The notes beneath the pieces are model-generated. The model was given only the letters and a program-made list of their open reading frames with translations, did no database searches and was not told the origin of the DNA. From NCBI RefSeq assembly GCF_054482595.1, contig NZ_CM137008.1: a stretch of DNA of 64,000 bases. One strand, 5' to 3'. This document shows, piece after piece, positions 23,700-36,503 of this stretch. A program made the translations under genes and the position numbers. Each line of letters starts with the position of its first letter. Within the stretch, counting starts at the first letter, position 1.

Positions 23700-24716
23700 A
23701 TGAACGCTAAGATAATTGCCTCGCTGGCCTTCACCAGCATGTTCAGCCTCAGCACCCTGTTTAGCCCGGCGCACGCCGAAGAGCAGGAAAAGGCGCTGAA
23801 TTTCGGCATTATTTCAACGGAATCACAGCAAAACCTGAAACCGCAATGGACGCCGTTTTTACAGGATATGGAGAAGAAGCTGGGCGTGAAGGTCAACGCC
23901 TTCTTTGCCCCGGACTACGCGGGCATTATCCAGGGAATGCGCTTCAACAAAGTGGATATCGCCTGGTACGGCAACCTGTCGGCAATGGAAGCGGTGGATC
24001 GCGCCAACGGCCAGGTCTTCGCCCAGACGGTCGCGGCGGATGGATCGCCGGGTTACTGGAGCGTGTTGATCGTCAACAAAGACAGTCCGATCAACAACCT
24101 GAGCGATCTGCTGGCGAAGCGGAAAGATCTCACCTTCGGCAATGGCGATCCTAACTCCACCTCTGGCTTCCTCGTCCCCGGTTACTACGTCTTTGCCAAA
24201 AACAATATCTCCGCTAACGACTTTAAGCGCACCGTCAACGCCGGGCATGAAACCAACGCGCTGGCCGTCGCCAACAAGCAGGTGGATGTGGCGACCAACA
24301 ACACCGAAAACCTCGACAAACTGAAAACCTCCGCGCCGGAGAAGCTCAAAGAGCTGAAGGTGATCTGGAAGTCGCCGCTAATCCCAGGCGATCCGATCGT
24401 CTGGCGCAAGAATCTGTCCGAAACCACCAAAGACAAGATCTACGACTTCTTTATGAATTACGGCAAGACGCCGGAAGAGAAAGCGGTGCTGGAACGCCTG
24501 GGCTGGGCGCCGTTCCGCGCCTCCAGCGACCTGCAACTGGTGCCGATTCGCCAGCTCGCGCTGTTTAAAGAGATGCAGGGCGTGAAAAGCAATAAAGGAC
24601 TGAATGAGCAGGACAAGCTGGCAAAAACCACCGAGATTCAGGCGCAGCTGGATGACCTGGACCGCCTGAACAACGCGTTAAGCGCGATGAGTTCGGTGAG
24701 TAAAGCGGTGCAGTAA
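23700..24716 (+). CDS. phnD: phosphonate ABC transporter periplasmic binding protein
   Basis: 338 aa with N-terminal signal peptide. Confidence 0.93.
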   Translation: MNAKIIASLAFTSMFSLSTLFSPAHAEEQEKALNFGIISTESQQNLKPQWTPFLQDMEKKLGVKVNAFFAPDYAGIIQGMRFNKVDIAWYGNLSAMEAVDRANGQVFAQTVAADGSPGYWSVLIVNKDSPINNLSDLLAKRKDLTFGNGDPNSTSGFLVPGYYVFAKNNISANDFKRTVNAGHETNALAVANKQVDVATNNTENLDKLKTSAPEKLKELKVIWKSPLIPGDPIVWRKNLSETTKDKIYDFFMNYGKTPEEKAVLERLGWAPFRASSDLQLVPIRQLALFKEMQGVKSNKGLNEQDKLAKTTEIQAQLDDLDRLNNALSAMSSVSKAVQ

Positions 24717-32941: not shown

Positions 32942-33700
32942 ATGAGCCTGACCCTCACGCTCACGGGCACCGGCGGCGCACAGGGCGTTCCGGCATGGGG
33001 CTGCGAGTGCGCGGCCTGCGCACGAGCGCGACGCTCGCCGCAGTATCGCCGCCAGCCGTGCAGCGGCGTAGTGAAGTTTAACGAGGCTGTCACCCTGATC
33101 GACGCCGGGCTGCACGATCTCACCGATCGCTGGTCGCCAGGATCGTTCCAGCAGTTTTTGCTGACGCATTATCATATGGATCACGTTCAGGGACTGTTTC
33201 CGCTGCGCTGGGGCGTGGGCGATTCGATCCCGGTCTACGGCCCGCCGGATGAACAGGGCTGCGACGATCTGTTTAAACATCCGGGCCTGCTTGATTTCAG
33301 CCACACGGTGGAACCGTTTGTGGTGTTCGATTTGCAGGGGTTGCAGGTGACACCGCTGCCGCTAAACCACTCAAAACTGACCTTCGGTTATCTGCTGGAA
33401 ACGGCACACAGCCGGGTGGCGTGGCTGTCTGACACCGCAGGCCTGCCGGAAAAAACGCTGAAATTTTTACACAATAATCAGCTACAGGTAATGGTGATTG
33501 ATTGCAGCCACCCGCCGCGCGAGGATGCACCGCGTAATCACTGTGATTTAAATACCGTGCTTGCGCTGAATCAGGTTATCCGCTCGCCACGGGTGATTCT
33601 GACCCATATCAGCCACCAGTTTGATGCGTGGCTGATGGAGAACGCGCTGCCGTCAGGGTTTGAGGCGGGGTTTGATGGGATGGAGATTGGGGTGGCGTGA
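32942..33700 (+). CDS. phnP: metallo-beta-lactamase-fold phosphodiesterase PhnP
   Basis: 252 aa; HxHxDH motif ([10 protein letters not shown]). Confidence 0.9.
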
Positions 33701-33732
33701 TGGGGGAGAATGTGCGCGCTGATGCCCTCATC

Positions 33733-33820
33733 CCGGCCCTCTCCCACAGGGAGAGGGAGAAAATCACCCCGTGCACCATCGGTCCCCTCGCCCCTTTGGG
33801 GAGAGGGTTAGGGTGAGGGG
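33733..33820. repeat. GC-rich palindromic intergenic element (family uncertain, possibly Box C-like)
   Basis: ccctctccc-aca-gggagaggg followed by cccctcgcccctttggggagagggttagggtgagggg between convergent phnP and yjdP. Confidence 0.5.
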
Positions 33821-33843
33821 CGATGCCAGCACCCGAGCCTACC

Positions 33844-34173
33844 TCACCGCCCATACTCATCTTCCATTCTCCGCTCTTCATCCTCCAGTTGCCGACGCTC
33901 CTGATCAAGCTGACGTTGGCGATCGTCCAGCTGCCTGCGGCGATCTTCAAACTGGCGGCGGCGGTCGTCATATTGTCTGCGCCGATCGTCGCTCACTTCA
34001 CGCTGCCAGCCGTCGTCGCGCGAATCTTCATAATCTCGCCCACGGTCAGGGTTATAAGCATCGTTAATCGCCTGCTGAATATTGCCAATGGTGTCGTCGA
34101 TAATATCGGCCTGGGCCGGTACGGTGGTCAGCGTGAGCAGGGTGAAAAAAAAGAGCGTGGAGTGGCGTTTCAT
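33844..34173 (-). CDS. yjdP: small secreted low-complexity protein YjdP
   Basis: 109 aa; N-terminal signal peptide; C-terminal DDRRRQ/ERRQ repeats; convergent with phnP as in K-12. Confidence 0.75.
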   Translation of the reverse strand: MKRHSTLFFFTLLTLTTVPAQADIIDDTIGNIQQAINDAYNPDRGRDYEDSRDDGWQREVSDDRRRQYDDRRRQFEDRRRQLDDRQRQLDQERRQLEDEERRMEDEYGR

Positions 34174-34241
34174 AAACTCGGCCTCGCAACAAAGTTAATA
34201 CAAGGTAGGCAAAGGTGCCTGTTACGAGTAGAGGAGGATTC

Positions 34242-36503
34242 TCAATTCTCTTGCCCCAGCGCCTGCGCCAACTGCGCACGGGTAAAGGGTTTGCGCAACA
34301 GCGCCACGTCTGGCAGCGCGGGGTTATGGCTGGGGCGTAAATCCTGACCGCTGATGAGTAGCAGCGTCAGGTGCGGGTAAAGTTTGCGGGCCGCATTGAC
34401 CACTTCTGCGCCGCTCATGCCGCCGGGGAGCATTAAATCGCTGATAAAAATATCGATTTCTGCTGATGCCGCCAGCAGATCCAGCGCCTGTTCGCCGCTG
34501 CTTGCTTCCAGCGTCAAATAGCCCAGCAGGTGCAACTGTTCGCAGATGGTCTGGCGCACCGCGGCTTCATCTTCCAGCACTAACACCAGTTTATCGCCGC
34601 TGACAGAAGCCTGTTCTACTGCCGCTGGCGATAGGTTTTTCGCCGCCGTCAGCGCGCGGGGAAGCTGTAATCTGACCGTTGTCCCCTGCCCCGGCGCGCT
34701 TTCAATTTCAACGCGCCCACCGGACTGGCGCACAAAACCATAGACCATCGACAAACCCAGCCCGCTGCCGCTGCCCGTCTGTTTGGTGGTAAAGAATGGC
34801 TCAAATACCTGGCTTTTCACCGCCTGCGACATACCGCTGCCATGATCGATGACCTCCAGTGCCACCATGTCCTGACGCTGCCCACTGCTGCGAGTAACGC
34901 GCTGATTCCAGGTACGAATTTTGATGATTCCCGTCTGCCCTTCCATCGCGTCACGGGCGTTCATCACCAGGTTGATGATGGCATTTTCCAGTTGGCTGAC
35001 GTCAATCCACGCGGGCCACGCCGGAGACTGCGCTTCAATCTCCAGCGCCAGCGTTGCCGGTAAGGAGTGGCGCATTAATTCGCTTAACTCTTCCAGCAAT
35101 GTTTTCAGTTCAACGGCTTGCGGATGTAAGGACTGCTTGCGGGAAAACGCCAGCAGTCGTTGTGTCAGTAGCGCCCCACGTTCGGCAGCTTGCAGCGCCC
35201 GCTGTATTCGCGGCGCGTCTGGCGAGTCCGGATTCACCAGCTCCAGGCTGCCAATAATCACCGCCAGCAGATTATTAAAATCATGGGCCAGCCCGCCCGT
35301 CAGTTGCCCGACCGCTTTCAGTTTCTGGCTGTGTAATAGCGCCTCTTCCAACCCCTGCCGCTCAGTTTGGGCAATCTCCATCTGCGTGGTCTTCTCTTTT
35401 AGCAGCCGTGAGGTTCGTTCGAGTGACTCGGTATTGCGGGCAAAAACGTTAAAGGCGCGCGCCAGTTCACCCAACTCATCACGCCGCTGTAACGCCGGAA
35501 AAGTGACGTCCGCTTCGCCGTACGCCAGGCGGCTCATGGCGCGGGAAATCGCCGTCAGGTTAGTGCCGAGGTTGCGATAGATATACCAGCCGGCAAACGC
35601 GGTGATCACCACCGCTAACAGGGCGAAAATCATGATCACCCTCTCGCCGGAGCGCAAATCCTGGTAACTTTGCGCCACGCGCTGACCGGAGAGCGTCGCC
35701 ACCTGTTCGGCGTAACGGTTGATGTCGCCATTGAGGATCGCCACCAGCGCTTTGATGTGAAACATATACCAGCTGATTGCCAGATCGCTTTGCTCCAGAG
35801 CGGCAGAAAGCGGCGCGAGTTTACGCATTTCATCATTGAAATCATTGAGTAACGTATTAACCAATGGCATATCGCTGTGGGTCGGCAACGCAGACATTAC
35901 CCCGACCAGTTGATGAATAATCGCCTGCGGCGCGGGGGTGGCAATAGCGGCAACAATCAGTCGGTTCATCTCGTTAAGCAAAATATCATCTTGCGCGTGA
36001 GTGACTTTTTGCAGATGCCGCAGATAACTTAAGTTTTGATACAGCGAACTTAACAGCGCGTTGCGCTCCAGATGCCGCCTTTGCCCGCGCTCCAGCATAC
36101 CGCCGACGCTGGTTTGCAGTTCGTTGCTACGCGTGATGATTCGCGTCACCAGCCCGGCTTCCTGCTGCGCTAAAGGCGCGTTCGCCAGTTGTGCAAGCGA
36201 GCTTTTTAATGCCCGCTGTGTCTCCTGCAACCGCTCGGCTTCGCCTTTATATTCCAGCGCTCCCACCACCTGCGACAATCGCACCGCCGCCGTTGCCACG
36301 TTTGCCGTGTCGCGCGCCAGATTCAGGCTGCCGGTCATATCATCCACCGTTTGCTGCTGCACCAGCTCCTGCATCTGGCTGGCATGACGAAAGCCCATTA
36401 CCGCCACGCCGCTGACCATCAACGTCACCGCCACCACCAGCAAATTCAAAAGCAGCAATCGCCCGCGCGCGCTGGCAAAAAAATGACGTCCGGGGTGCGC
36501 CAT
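34242..36503 (-). CDS. hybrid sensor histidine kinase (periplasmic sensor, HAMP, HisKA, HATPase, C-terminal receiver; no HPt domain)
   Basis: ~753 aa from ATG at 36503 (MAHPGRHFF...) with GGAG 8 nt upstream; two TM segments flank a ~300 aa periplasmic region; H-box GGLAHDFNNLL; G-boxes DHGSGM / GSGLGLSMV; receiver with ISDLMLPGG; protein ends ~25 aa after the receiver. Confidence 0.85.
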   Translation of the reverse strand: MAHPGRHFFASARGRLLLLNLLVVAVTLMVSGVAVMGFRHASQMQELVQQQTVDDMTGSLNLARDTANVATAAVRLSQVVGALEYKGEAERLQETQRALKSSLAQLANAPLAQQEAGLVTRIITRSNELQTSVGGMLERGQRRHLERNALLSSLYQNLSYLRHLQKVTHAQDDILLNEMNRLIVAAIATPAPQAIIHQLVGVMSALPTHSDMPLVNTLLNDFNDEMRKLAPLSAALEQSDLAISWYMFHIKALVAILNGDINRYAEQVATLSGQRVAQSYQDLRSGERVIMIFALLAVVITAFAGWYIYRNLGTNLTAISRAMSRLAYGEADVTFPALQRRDELGELARAFNVFARNTESLERTSRLLKEKTTQMEIAQTERQGLEEALLHSQKLKAVGQLTGGLAHDFNNLLAVIIGSLELVNPDSPDAPRIQRALQAAERGALLTQRLLAFSRKQSLHPQAVELKTLLEELSELMRHSLPATLALEIEAQSPAWPAWIDVSQLENAIINLVMNARDAMEGQTGIIKIRTWNQRVTRSSGQRQDMVALEVIDHGSGMSQAVKSQVFEPFFTTKQTGSGSGLGLSMVYGFVRQSGGRVEIESAPGQGTTVRLQLPRALTAAKNLSPAAVEQASVSGDKLVLVLEDEAAVRQTICEQLHLLGYLTLEASSGEQALDLLAASAEIDIFISDLMLPGGMSGAEVVNAARKLYPHLTLLLISGQDLRPSHNPALPDVALLRKPFTRAQLAQALGQEN

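Follow-up and report, generated by a model that had tools for sequence, protein, structure and literature searches.

The yjdP locus and its surroundings

The gene described here lies on the minus strand of the window, i.e. the whole 64,000-nucleotide stretch of DNA that was analysed, between phnP and a gene for a hybrid sensor kinase. The features that frame it are the following.

33725..33819, no strand assigned: inverted repeat rich in GC, with two 21-nt arms that are 81% complementary, in the 143 nt that separate the convergent genes phnP and yjdP
33844..34173, minus strand: yjdP coding sequence of 109 codons, with an ATG start and a TGA stop at 33844-33846 (open reading frame list, NF041443, RefSeq, dN/dS)
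34242..36503, minus strand: upstream neighbour of yjdP, a hybrid sensor kinase gene with HAMP, HisKA, HATPase_c and Response_reg domains (lmvK of an OI167-type block; RefSeq XH990)

The 109-residue translation taken from the open reading frame list reads MKRHSTLFFFTLLTLTTVPAQA up to the predicted cleavage site and DIIDD...DRRRQYDDRRRQFEDRRRQLDDRQRQLDQERRQLEDEERRMEDEYGR after it. It matches the NCBIfam profile NF041443 (“DDRRRQL repeat protein YjdP”) with 148.6 bits (the cutoff being 90) over residues 1-103 of the protein and positions 1-101 of the 101 in the profile, and the identical sequence of strain XH990 is annotated in RefSeq under the same name, which confirms the original prediction that this gene is yjdP. 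Pfam family PF28054 is on record for all close homologues; a scan with the local Pfam set, which was without the PF28054 model, returned sub-threshold compositional matches only (DUF7900, Arm-DNA-bind_5, DUF4140). The gene is a full member of the YjdP family, a curated family confined to Enterobacteriaceae. Charged heptads do dominate the protein, as had been stated, but their description as unusual for a periplasmic protein has to be set against existing curation, which covers the family as well as its repeat: the repeat is known, the gene is not new, and what was originally found is a gene whose NCBI name already refers to this very repeat.

YjdP of Escherichia coli K-12 (b4487) is 94% identical to the protein encoded in the window and shares its length, leader, N-terminal motif and heptads, as well as the convergent arrangement of yjdP with phnP. 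The window gene differs from that of K-12 only as an allele, in that codons 4-10, the 5′ UTR and the upstream spacer are of the type associated with the lmvK block and not of the rpiB type. No experiment on YjdP itself was found in the literature searched, where papers naming YjdP do not study it, and a literature search for “b4487” found no relevant paper.

Downstream, phnP ends at 33700 on the plus strand and faces the end of yjdP at 33844, an arrangement seen in 73 of 80 species. The inverted repeat between the two genes folds weakly better than shuffled sequences (z = -1.6) and belongs to a dispersed repeat found at a median of 6 places per E. coli genome; a G-quadruplex/hairpin element between yjdP and phnP has been described (PMC5100583). 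Upstream, the stop codon of the kinase gene (34242-34244) lies on the same strand, 68 nt from the yjdP ATG, exactly as originally noted, and in K-12 the same-strand rpiB gene ends exactly 68 nt upstream of yjdP as well. The kinase gene was named lmvK in a study whose supplements do not mention yjdP (PMC10128022). Although described as EHEC-associated, the lmvK block adjoins yjdP in many genera, and the alternation of als and lmv blocks is therefore old and not pathotype-specific.

An intact yjdP reading frame is present in 76 of 80 species belonging to about 20 genera of Enterobacteriaceae. Compared with 16 homologues, dN/dS is 0.05-0.25 wherever it could be computed, with pN of 0.02-0.28 and pS of 0.15-0.80, the latter saturated between genera, and insertions and deletions comprise whole codons or whole heptads. 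The gene is real and under purifying selection. Several long open reading frames overlap it in other frames (33823-34347 on the plus strand, 33609-33971 on the minus strand), and it had been recognised at the outset that the repeat might be a frameshift artefact of another frame. As an artefact, the gene could be a shadow of GC-rich repeat DNA or of an overlapping 174-codon plus-strand frame. That reading is effectively refuted by the low dN/dS and by the intact frame across some 20 genera; the frame is kept despite saturated synonymous divergence, it gains and loses whole codons or heptads, and conservation in 76 species extends to its signal peptide and the context of its start. We give it practically no chance.

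Leader and layout of the predicted protein

The product can be divided into five segments, for which the coordinates on the minus strand are given below.

34108..34173, minus strand: signal peptide, residues 1-22 (MKRH / STLFFFTLLTLTTV / PAQA), with predicted cleavage after Ala22 (rule-based)
34054..34107, minus strand: residues 23-40 (DIIDDTIGNIQQAINDAY), the conserved segment with which the mature protein begins, predicted as an amphipathic helix
33991..34053, minus strand: variable acidic linker, residues 41-61
33865..33990, minus strand: six full heptads, residues 62-103 (DDRRRQY DDRRRQF EDRRRQL DDRQRQL DQERRQL EDEERRM), encoded by 21-nt DNA repeats
33847..33864, minus strand: acidic C-terminal partial heptad, residues 104-109 (EDEYGR), from the translation

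Cleavage was judged by rule, i.e. by a basic n-region, a hydrophobic stretch (h-region) about 10-15 residues long, and positions -3 and -1 occupied by small residues, and the leader agrees with all of these properties of a Sec-type signal peptide. Its n-region is basic, the mean Kyte-Doolittle hydropathy of its h-region is +1.68 compared to -2.28 for the mature part, it comprises 22 residues in 70 of 76 homologues, and the A-x-A motif followed by Asp at the predicted cleavage site is found in 76/76. The h-region is hydrophobic yet poorly conserved, leader identity being 0.50 compared to 0.88 in the adjoining segment. The signal peptide noted at first sight is thus of the textbook Sec type by rule, and YjdP is very probably exported by Sec and cleaved after Ala22, which would yield an 87-residue periplasmic protein.

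Residues 23-40 represent the best conserved part of YjdP (identity 0.88), with D23, I29, G30, N31, I32, Q33 and A35 invariant, and are helical in an AlphaFold2 model at moderate confidence (pLDDT about 62-70). The linker that follows has the lowest identity of the protein (0.42), varies in length between genera and carries a mean net charge of about -2.4.

Heptad repeats and the predicted rod

The statement that charged DDRRRQ/ERRQ repeats dominate the mature protein is borne out by the translation, which contains the string originally quoted, and by heptad statistics that lie far beyond chance. At the DNA level, Tandem Repeats Finder reports a period-21 array at 33918-33990. Self-identity of the protein at an offset of 7 residues is 0.62, compared to 0.18 +/- 0.055 in 5000 shuffles whose maximum was 0.38. 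Pairs of opposite charge at i/i+3 and i/i+4 number 36 versus 21 +/- 3.3 in shuffled sequences, and pairs of like charge only 2 versus 19.8 +/- 3.3; the Fourier amplitude of charge at period 7 is 0.42 versus 0.10 +/- 0.05. Hydrophobic residues recur 7 apart, at positions 68, 75, 82, 89, 96 and 103. Among 69 species, the register is composed of D/E at positions b (0.89) and c (0.77), R at d (0.58), e (0.54) and f (0.93), Q at g (0.72) and L/Y/F/M at a (0.99). Position d, where D (0.21) and E (0.17) make up most of the remainder, is never hydrophobic. Basic residues are overwhelmingly arginine (R:K = 1410:28 in pooled mature sequences), and 55% of the residues of the mature protein are charged, with a mean hydropathy of -2.28.

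The heptad region is conserved position by position, with an identity of 0.79 across about 20 genera, and exactly six in-register hydrophobic positions are found in 69 of 76 species. Mean net charge in the 69 species changes from +0.6, +1.0 and +1.1 in heptads 1-3 to 0, 0 and -1.7 in heptads 4-6 and -2.8 in the tail. Comparison of repeat number between strains, which had been proposed as a check, yields protein lengths that step by 7 residues (95/102/109/116/123 aa); natural yjdP alleles thus differ by whole heptads.

In the AlphaFold2 monomer, residues 51-108 form one helix with pLDDT of 89-97, and confidence is lowest (pLDDT 53) at the acidic linker residues 41-50. Judging from this model, the heptad region is probably one continuous helix, which would comprise about 55 residues, measure about 8 nm, and be stabilised by dense Asp/Glu-Arg salt bridges from i to i+3 and i+4. 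Such a helix would bear a hydrophobic stripe just one residue wide at position a, and a conserved charge gradient would run along it from basic heptads 1-3 to the acidic heptad 6 and tail. It is through the stripe, the gradient and the N-terminal amphipathic helix that YjdP would likely self-associate or dock to a partner in the envelope. Searches for relatives of known structure returned no match, be it with the mature sequence against the PDB (E <= 1) or with the model against the PDB using Foldseek, the latter as expected of a lone helix.

The original suggestion of a disordered or coiled-coil protein proves too loose, for while residues 41-50 of the linker are indeed of low confidence, residues 51-108 are modelled as a helix with pLDDT 89-97 and Arg occupies position d. 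Since Arg and not a hydrophobic residue stands at d, a canonical coiled coil describes YjdP less well than a single helix that is stabilised by salt bridges and bears a hydrophobic stripe one residue wide. A conventional homo-oligomeric coiled coil, dimeric or trimeric and possibly antiparallel, is nevertheless a serious if less likely alternative: periodicity is strictly 7 residues, the hydrophobic residue at a is invariant and foreign to classical charged single helices, rods with such a basic-to-acidic gradient would pair more readily in antiparallel orientation, and the weak profile matches obtained are all to coiled-coil proteins (FlbB, HlyD, RNase Y). What speaks against it is that canonical coiled coils have hydrophobic residues at both a and d, whereas YjdP has them at a only, so that with R/D/E at d the a/d core is missing, and that the density of i/i+4 salt bridges is typical of stabilisation within a helix. 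An AlphaFold2 model of a tandem construct, in which a 40-residue Gly/Ser linker connects two copies of the mature protein, gave a mean pLDDT of 58, a pTM of 0.43 and helices of lower pLDDT (77-90) than in the monomer (89-97); these scores are uninformative as to self-association. Far less probable still is an essentially disordered mature protein, i.e. a water-retaining polyampholyte of hydrophilin or LEA type in which the repeat serves composition instead of structure. Its high charge and low hydropathy, the variable and low-confidence linker, and the ties of the Rcs regulon to desiccation and osmotic protection would all suit such a protein. A function in composition only, however, needs no conservation of positions, repeat number or gradient and is unlikely for that reason, as all three are conserved here (0.79 across about 20 genera, a count fixed at six), and the confidence of the AlphaFold2 helix is very high.

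A candidate promoter in the spacer upstream of yjdP

The 68-nt spacer and the end of the kinase gene contain a series of short motifs that together resemble a promoter.

34228..34245, minus strand: conserved 18-mer TTGAGAATCCTCCTCTAC (family consensus TTGAGATTCCTCCGCTAC), which holds the RcsB-box-like site
34231-34244, minus strand: RcsB-box-like site TGAGAATCCTCCTC, of which the first three bases are the TGA stop codon of the kinase gene
34202..34207, minus strand: hexamer TACCTT, the candidate -10, which follows the box after 23 nt
34195, minus strand: predicted transcription start (A), placed by analogy with the spacing in rprA and giving a 22-nt 5′ UTR
34182-34185, minus strand: GAGG Shine-Dalgarno sequence within the predicted yjdP 5′ UTR

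The position in strain MG1655 equivalent to the predicted start is 4313846. The 18-mer occurs once in the window with 2 mismatches allowed (0.03 expected by chance). In an alignment of 50 loci from many genera almost all of its columns are at least 80% conserved, which does not hold for the flanking DNA. The box begins with TGAGA in 78 of 80 species and with TGGGA in the other 2, and a TAnnnT sequence follows it in 78 of 80 species at a distance of 23 nt in 72 loci and of 24 nt in 6. As a module, box and -10 are present in 80/80 species whatever the gene upstream, and the box is kept with lmvK adjacent (27 species), with rpiB adjacent (21 species) or with another neighbour. Since the 18-mer is also kept in 33 loci where no long open reading frame ends at the motif, coding constraint does not explain it.

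Several other explanations of these sequences were tried and rejected. LmvR or AlsR, like coding constraint, does not account for the conservation of an 18-mer found with either neighbour and in the 33 loci free of an open reading frame. As a binder, LmvR is further ruled out by the presence of the motif in K-12-type loci that have neither lmvK nor lmvR, LmvR itself being an OmpR-family regulator. A paired recombination site was dismissed since no second copy occurs in the window, which spans the whole block. Klebsiella and Enterobacter have a strong hairpin in the 5′ UTR that would sequester the Shine-Dalgarno sequence, but E. coli lacks it, the window included (z = +0.46). A search of positions 33400-34500 against Rfam gave chance-level matches to eukaryotic miRNAs and snoRNAs only.

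A generic sigma-70 scan called no yjdP promoter; it missed the candidate -10 because there is no good -35. In the spacer, the terminator scan found nothing convincing: its sole match there, located between the box and the -10, is weak, with a stem of 5 bp and a poor T-tract. Two further matches of that scan lie inside the coding repeat of yjdP, on the wrong strand. From its sequence and its conservation, yjdP has in all likelihood a promoter of its own within the 68-nt spacer. In this promoter an activator box, which shares bases with the upstream stop codon, would lie at about -49..-36, a TAnnnT hexamer would serve as the -10, and the leader would span 22 nt.

A putative link to the Rcs phosphorelay

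The published RcsB box is TN(G/A)GAN4TC(T/C)NA (PMC7913699). The site TGAGAATCCTCCTC agrees with it at 7 of the 8 specified positions and departs from it at the last base, which is C and not A in all loci. Taken by itself, the degenerate pattern carries no significance, with 2 matches in the window against 4.3 expected. The closest parallel is provided by rprA of MG1655, an RcsB-activated, RcsA-independent gene, in which the box TGAGACGAATCTGA at -49..-36 is followed after 23 nt by TACTAT, with 6 nt from TACTAT to the annotated RNA 5′ end. Both genes feature a 14-nt box that starts with TGAGA at an identical distance from TAnnnT, and when counted from the predicted start the yjdP box lies right upstream of -35 or overlaps it, as is the case for RcsA-independent promoters. 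Unlike rprA-type promoters, the yjdP box ends in C and not A, overlaps the upstream stop codon, and belongs to an 18-mer conserved far beyond what the loose RcsB consensus demands, and its dependence on RcsB is putative.

Published expression data are consistent with this likeness. In Table 1 of a study of LolCDE inhibition, yjdP is up 9.5- and 10.6-fold together with osmB, bdm, wca, ivy and yjbEFG (PMC5105897), and Data Set S3 of PMC8787472 lists it, with wcaA/B/D/F, gmd, yjbE/G, bdm and ivy, among the genes that colistin, LL37 and CSA13 up-regulate. The gene is thus induced under conditions that activate Rcs, though not Rcs alone, and cell-envelope damage seems to switch it on. Both LolCDE inhibition and cationic peptides activate Cpx and sigma-S too, so that the induction of yjdP is not specific to Rcs. 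The PRECISE “RcsAB” module does not include yjdP, and bdm, osmB, ivy and rprA are likewise not among its genes; this module corresponds to the RcsA-dependent capsule set. An entry for yjdP in an acid-resistance ChIP table (PMC5217608) could not be assigned to a particular regulator and is given no weight here. By analogy with rprA, we favour on balance that the box is an RcsB site and YjdP an Rcs-induced small secreted protein: when the Rcs envelope-stress phosphorelay fires, RcsB would act at the box and YjdP would be made.

Two competing accounts of yjdP expression deserve consideration. The 18-mer may bind a regulator other than RcsB, e.g. of FixJ/NarL type with a similar half-site, or RcsB together with an auxiliary partner, stress induction then being indirect. 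The near-invariance of the 18-mer, including the N4 spacer (TTCC) and flanking GCTAC that the RcsB consensus leaves unspecified, suits this idea, as do a last consensus base that is always wrong and the triggering of Cpx and sigma-S by the stresses of both RNA-seq studies. We consider it rather unlikely all the same, as the left half-site TGAGA and its position relative to the -10 are identical to those of rprA, a standard RcsB-only promoter, and the genes co-induced with yjdP in the two data sets are mostly Rcs targets. The other account would have yjdP without a functional promoter of its own here and expressed mainly by read-through from lmvK. Read-through from the kinase gene had been part of the original prediction, and the same-strand 68-nt gap, the 5-bp stem with poor T-tract as sole terminator-like match, and the co-variation in K-12 of yjdP with upstream rpiB in a CRP-dependent module all point in its direction. 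As the main source of expression it is nevertheless improbable given the box and -10 module in 80/80 species regardless of the neighbour and even with no long upstream reading frame. A weaker point against it is that the genes noted as more than 5-fold up on LolCDE inhibition, in the part of that study available, do not include rpiB, while yjdP of K-12 is up about 10-fold (PMC5105897).

The preferred reading, an own and probably RcsB-dependent promoter, leaves room for read-through from the upstream gene, lmvK here and rpiB in K-12, as a probable secondary input. In K-12, yjdP groups with rpiB in the CRP-dependent “Crp-2” iModulon (PMC6892915 Supplementary Table 4), and the swap of rpiB for the kinase gene would plausibly change this secondary CRP-linked input. 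The transcriptional context originally thought to differ from K-12 may do so in this respect, but the distance to rpiB is also 68 nt and the promoter-like module is present in both contexts.

Comparison with known systems

The combined reading of yjdP as the gene of an exported rod, with its own promoter and an Rcs input, is the best overall explanation of the evidence and one that we hold to be reasonably likely. It turns an orphan “y-gene” into a testable case, with a candidate promoter at single-base resolution, RcsB as its probable regulator, and a defined architecture in which a leader, a conserved and presumed docking helix and a linker precede a charged, polar rod whose length is conserved. 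Small envelope-stress proteins such as Ivy, MliC, OsmB, YmgD, YpeC, Spy and CpxP are comparable to YjdP in that it too is small, predicted to be exported, and co-induced on LolCDE inhibition or with cationic peptides. These proteins are globular or cradle-shaped, however, whereas YjdP is a predicted repeat rod; it has no sequence or profile similarity to them, and neither Pfam nor NCBIfam gave a match to the LTXXQ family of CpxP, Spy and ZraP. If both the Rcs link and the rod model are true, YjdP would be an extra member of this set of small envelope-stress proteins and, at the same time, an easily studied secreted charged single helix.

It is tempting to speculate, although the odds are against it, that YjdP is a dedicated Rcs effector whose polar rod, its length fixed at six heptads (about 8 nm), would serve the stressed envelope as spacer, as clamp or as a decoy that acts electrostatically, e.g. 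on cationic antimicrobial peptides, and that the box is so tightly fixed as to double as boundary and stop codon for interchangeable upstream cassettes (als, lmvK, GNAT fragment). In that event the charged single alpha-helix of eukaryotes would have a secreted equivalent in bacteria, YjdP.

Charged single alpha-helix (CSAH, “ER/K”) domains form lever-arm extensions in myosin VI and myosin X and also occur in caldesmon. YjdP resembles them in its high content of D/E and R, its period-7 charge pattern, the enrichment of opposite charges and near absence of like charges at i+3/i+4, and the long uninterrupted helix predicted by the AlphaFold2 monomer. It differs from them in several respects. CSAH domains have no hydrophobic seam, whereas in YjdP position a is L/Y/F/M in 99% of heptads (69 species), an invariant hydrophobic residue at every seventh position to which a basic-to-acidic gradient is added; its basic residues are almost exclusively Arg (R:K about 50:1), and Asp exceeds Glu. 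Furthermore, YjdP is bacterial and predicted to be secreted, while CSAH domains are cytoplasmic eukaryotic spacers. In terms of the model, YjdP may thus be said to work like a CSAH domain without being filed as a classical one.

Authenticity and distribution of yjdP

The six-frame ORF list and the annotation of the adjacent gene gave the following features.

33844..34173, minus strand: yjdP, an ORF of 109 codons starting with ATG
34242-34244, minus strand: TGA stop codon of the upstream hybrid sensor kinase gene (HAMP, HisKA, HATPase_c and receiver domains)

The charged repeat string quoted in the original prediction is contained exactly in the translation of this ORF, and the kinase gene, on the same strand, indeed ends 68 nt before the yjdP ATG. 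E. coli XH990 is 100% identical to the window across the yjdP region, and its RefSeq labels for the two genes are "DDRRRQL repeat protein YjdP" and hybrid sensor histidine kinase/response regulator. When each species was represented by a single genome, relatives were found in 80 species from about 20 genera of Enterobacteriaceae, including Escherichia, Citrobacter, Enterobacter, Raoultella, Kosakonia, Cedecea, Leclercia, Klebsiella (K. oxytoca and K. grimontii), Lelliottia, Kluyvera, Trabulsiella, Phytobacter, Pluralibacter and Pseudocitrobacter. A frameshift artefact, the outcome that would have undone the prediction, is ruled out by three observations: 76 of the 80 species have an unbroken ORF of 101-116 residues; indels add or remove complete codons or heptads; and dN/dS, where computable against 16 homologues, is 0.05-0.25 (pN 0.02-0.28; pS up to 0.8, i.e. 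saturated between genera). Overlapping ORFs in other frames were rejected as shadows of the real gene. The family is small and confined to Enterobacteriaceae, since only 49 of 1.8 billion cluster representatives searched gave a match, mostly fragments of the YjdP family itself, a few being compositional matches to giant coiled-coil proteins.

Protein architecture and heptad number

Four segments can be distinguished in YjdP.

Residues 1-22: leader, with a basic n-region, a 14-residue hydrophobic core and PAQA
Residues 23-40: DIIDDTIGNIQQAINDAY segment, the best-conserved part (88% identity)
Residues 41-61: variable acidic linker (42% identity)
Residues 62-109: heptad region, six full heptads and an acidic partial heptad

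The proposed signal peptide is well founded: next to the basic n-region and hydrophobic core, A-x-A followed by Asp is found at the predicted signal peptidase cleavage site in all 76 homologues, and the leader sequence is only 50% conserved, as would be usual for a signal peptide. Hydrophobic residues at a spacing of 3-4 in residues 23-40 are consistent with an amphipathic helix. AlphaFold2, run with a 28-sequence alignment, models residues 51-108 as one helix (pLDDT 89-97), with the lowest confidence in residues 41-50 of the linker; neither sequence search nor fold search found a solved relative.

With heptad positions lettered a to g, the register across 69 species is D/E at b and c, R at d, R/Q at e, R at f (93%), Q/R at g and L/Y/F/M at a (99%). 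This repeat is no compositional accident, given an offset-7 self-identity of 0.62 (0.18 +/- 0.055 in shuffles), a period-7 charge signal of 0.42 (versus 0.10 +/- 0.05), hydrophobic residues precisely 7 apart (positions 68, 75, 82, 89, 96 and 103) and a 21-nt tandem array in the DNA (33918-33990). Opposite charges are paired at i+3/i+4 36 times, versus 21 in shuffles, and like charges twice, versus 20; the pooled mature sequences contain 1410 Arg and 28 Lys. Between species the heptad count is held at six, with exactly six in-register hydrophobic positions in 69 of 76 species. Net charge declines along the region: heptads 1-3 have about +1 each, heptads 4-5 have 0, heptad 6 has -1.7 and the tail -2.8. 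The fixed number of heptads and the conserved charge gradient argue for a specific structure and not mere composition.

The comparison of repeat number between strains suggested at the outset, made on sequence clusters from Escherichia, Shigella and Citrobacter, revealed lengths of 95, 102, 109, 116 and 123 residues, differing by loss or gain of whole heptads. The 109-residue form occurs in this window, K-12 and O157; it and the 102-residue form are both common (clusters of about 1000 or more sequences or contigs each), and one E. albertii allele carries two extra heptads. A second, independent length polymorphism is present in E. coli SaT040, which we take to be an ST131 strain: 6.6 copies of a 9-nt tandem repeat in the signal peptide (L086:1609-1667, MKRFPLFLLFTLFTLFTLFTLFTLFTLFTVPAQA) roughly double the h-region, for a precursor of 121 aa. 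This expansion could change export or membrane retention of YjdP.

The neighbourhood of yjdP

The downstream neighbour, phnP, is convergent with yjdP, an arrangement shared by 73 of 80 species. The spacer between them contains a GC-rich inverted repeat (window 33725-33819, CCCTCATCCCGGCCCTCTCCC / GGGAGAGGGTTAGGGTGAGGG). This repeat is part of a dispersed element that matches at a median of 6 places in an E. coli genome. O157 and other strains have a shorter spacer, and PMC5100583 lists a G-quadruplex/hairpin element at this position. In the annotation of E. coli O157:H7 Z892, phnO, directly before phnP and yjdP, is a pseudogene with a frameshift (L003:2906-3341).

The upstream neighbour is dimorphic across the family: among the 80 species, an lmvK-type kinase gene adjoins yjdP in 27 and lies within 6 kb in 12 more, rpiB of the als locus adjoins it in 21, and the remaining 20 have something else there (one with rpiB within 6 kb). 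In the window the upstream block is as follows.

34242-~44000 (L001:12643-21784): kinase, sugar ABC transporter, lyxose/mannose isomerase, aldolase, kinase and response regulator, then yjcS

The block corresponds to OI167 (lmvK-lmuKAIZYX-lmvR), an island reported from EHEC, where it takes the place of the allose locus between yjcS and yjdP (PMC10128022). At 80% coverage, 399 of 5426 complete E. coli genomes carry it; its occurrence here is in the background of a Chinese urine isolate (XH990). Homologues of lmvK with 75-83% identity adjoin yjdP in Citrobacter, Enterobacter, Leclercia, Lelliottia, Pluralibacter, Silvania and others (loci L005-L081), and because they do so in many genera the als/lmv alternation is an old cross-genus polymorphism. 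In Raoultella sp., Kosakonia spp. and Enterobacter sp. Bisph1 (L008, L011, L022, L043, L065, L068) only the C-terminal ~371 residues of the LmvK homologue were matched upstream of yjdP, which suggests that the gene either is a remnant cut short or encodes a smaller kinase whose sensor domain differs.

Relative to K-12, yjdP is nearly identical except at its 5' end, where codons 4-10 (34145-34164) have strongly diverged, as has the spacer outside the conserved box described below (window 34145-34241 versus L002:4549-4645). Since identity collapses inside yjdP, the edge of the als/lmvK swap in E. coli lies within the signal-peptide codons and not in the intergenic region, so that the promoter and 5' end of yjdP travel with the block.

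A conserved promoter-like module and its candidate regulator

In every E. coli context examined, whether lmvK, rpiB or the GNAT acetyltransferase fragment of O145:H28, the upstream gene stops precisely 68 nt before the yjdP ATG (window 34242-34244, L002:4646, L003:4576, L087:2076, the ends of three unrelated genes). Alignment of the 110 nt before yjdP from 50 loci shows an almost invariant 18-mer, TTGAGATTCCTCCGCTAC, between variable flanks, and its TGA is the stop codon of whichever gene precedes yjdP, which accounts for the constant distance. In 78 of 80 species a TGAGAnTnnTCYnC box is followed after 23 nt (72 loci) or 24 nt (6 loci) by TAnnnT; the other two have TGGGA in the box. A long ORF ends at the box TGA in 45 of the 78 and at none of the other 33 loci, so that coding constraint does not explain its conservation. 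The elements in the window are:

34231-34244, minus strand: box
34202-34207, minus strand: TACCTT hexamer
34195, minus strand: A, predicted transcription start
34182-34185, minus strand: GAGG

It is thus very probable that yjdP has a promoter of its own. A leader hairpin GCCAG...CTGGC, pairing the Shine-Dalgarno sequence and the AU of the start codon, is strong in many genera other than Escherichia (Klebsiella grimontii, L035:5970-6003, -12.5 kcal/mol, z = -2.9; Enterobacter chuandaensis, L075:5970-6003, -17.9 kcal/mol, z = -4.2) and absent in E. coli, including the window (z = +0.46).

The promoter of rprA, a standard RcsB reporter, has in MG1655 the box TGAGACGAATCTGA, 23 nt, TACTAT and 6 nt before the annotated RNA 5' end, which places the box at -49 to -36, and the yjdP module shares this box-to-hexamer geometry. 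Apart from its last base the yjdP box fits the published RcsB box, TN(G/A)GAN4TC(T/C)NA (PMC7913699). Two independent K-12 RNA-seq studies show co-induction with Rcs-regulon genes. In one, inhibiting LolCDE raises yjdP 9.5- and 10.6-fold, and osmB, bdm, wca, ivy, mliC and yjbEFG stand at the top of the same table (PMC5105897); in the other, the genes that colistin, LL37 and CSA13 up-regulate include yjdP as well as wcaA/B/D/F, gmd, yjbE/G, bdm and ivy (PMC8787472 Data Set S3). The stresses used in both studies fire Cpx and sigma-S too, and yjdP is missing from the RcsA-dependent 'RcsAB' capsule module of PRECISE (PMC6892915). The degenerate pattern TNRGANNNNTCYNC is not significant alone, with 2 matches in the 64-kb window versus 4.3 expected; the sole other match (24119-24132, minus strand, TGAGATCTTTCCGC) is within chance expectation. 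Moreover, the motif is conserved beyond what RcsB requires. On balance, RcsB is the putative regulator that we favour, with moderate confidence.

The original prediction held that the transcriptional context differs from K-12, with possible read-through from the kinase gene. In K-12, too, a gene on the yjdP strand ends 68 nt upstream, and the promoter module is shared; the main control is therefore probably unchanged. No convincing terminator was found in the 68-nt spacer, and read-through is plausible in both the lmvK and the rpiB context; yjdP (b4487) and rpiB (b4090) are both in the CRP-dependent Crp-2 module of the MG1655 PRECISE compendium (PMC6892915 Supplementary Table 4), which suggests their co-transcription in K-12. 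The secondary input from rpiB would here be replaced by whatever drives lmvK, and to this extent the proposed change of context is partly supported.

Comparison with known systems

NF041443 and PF28054 already cover the gene, its family and the repeat, so the repeat as such was already known, and the papers found to name yjdP do so in passing only. As far as we checked, the promoter module, probable Rcs control, fixed heptad number, charge gradient and Arg-only usage, which we infer from comparison and published expression tables, have not been described before. Rather than a surprise, yjdP is a tidy orphan gene with a hypothesis that can now be tested. As a probe of self-association, a tandem of mature YjdP with a 40-residue Gly/Ser linker between the copies was folded with a matched alignment; judged by confidence scores, the helices were kept at lower confidence (77-90; mean pLDDT 58 and pTM 0.43). 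The charge pattern of YjdP is like that of a charged single alpha-helix, but its invariantly hydrophobic a position is not, and we therefore do not file it as a classical member of that class. Nor is it a canonical coiled coil, since its d position is occupied by Arg, Asp or Glu.
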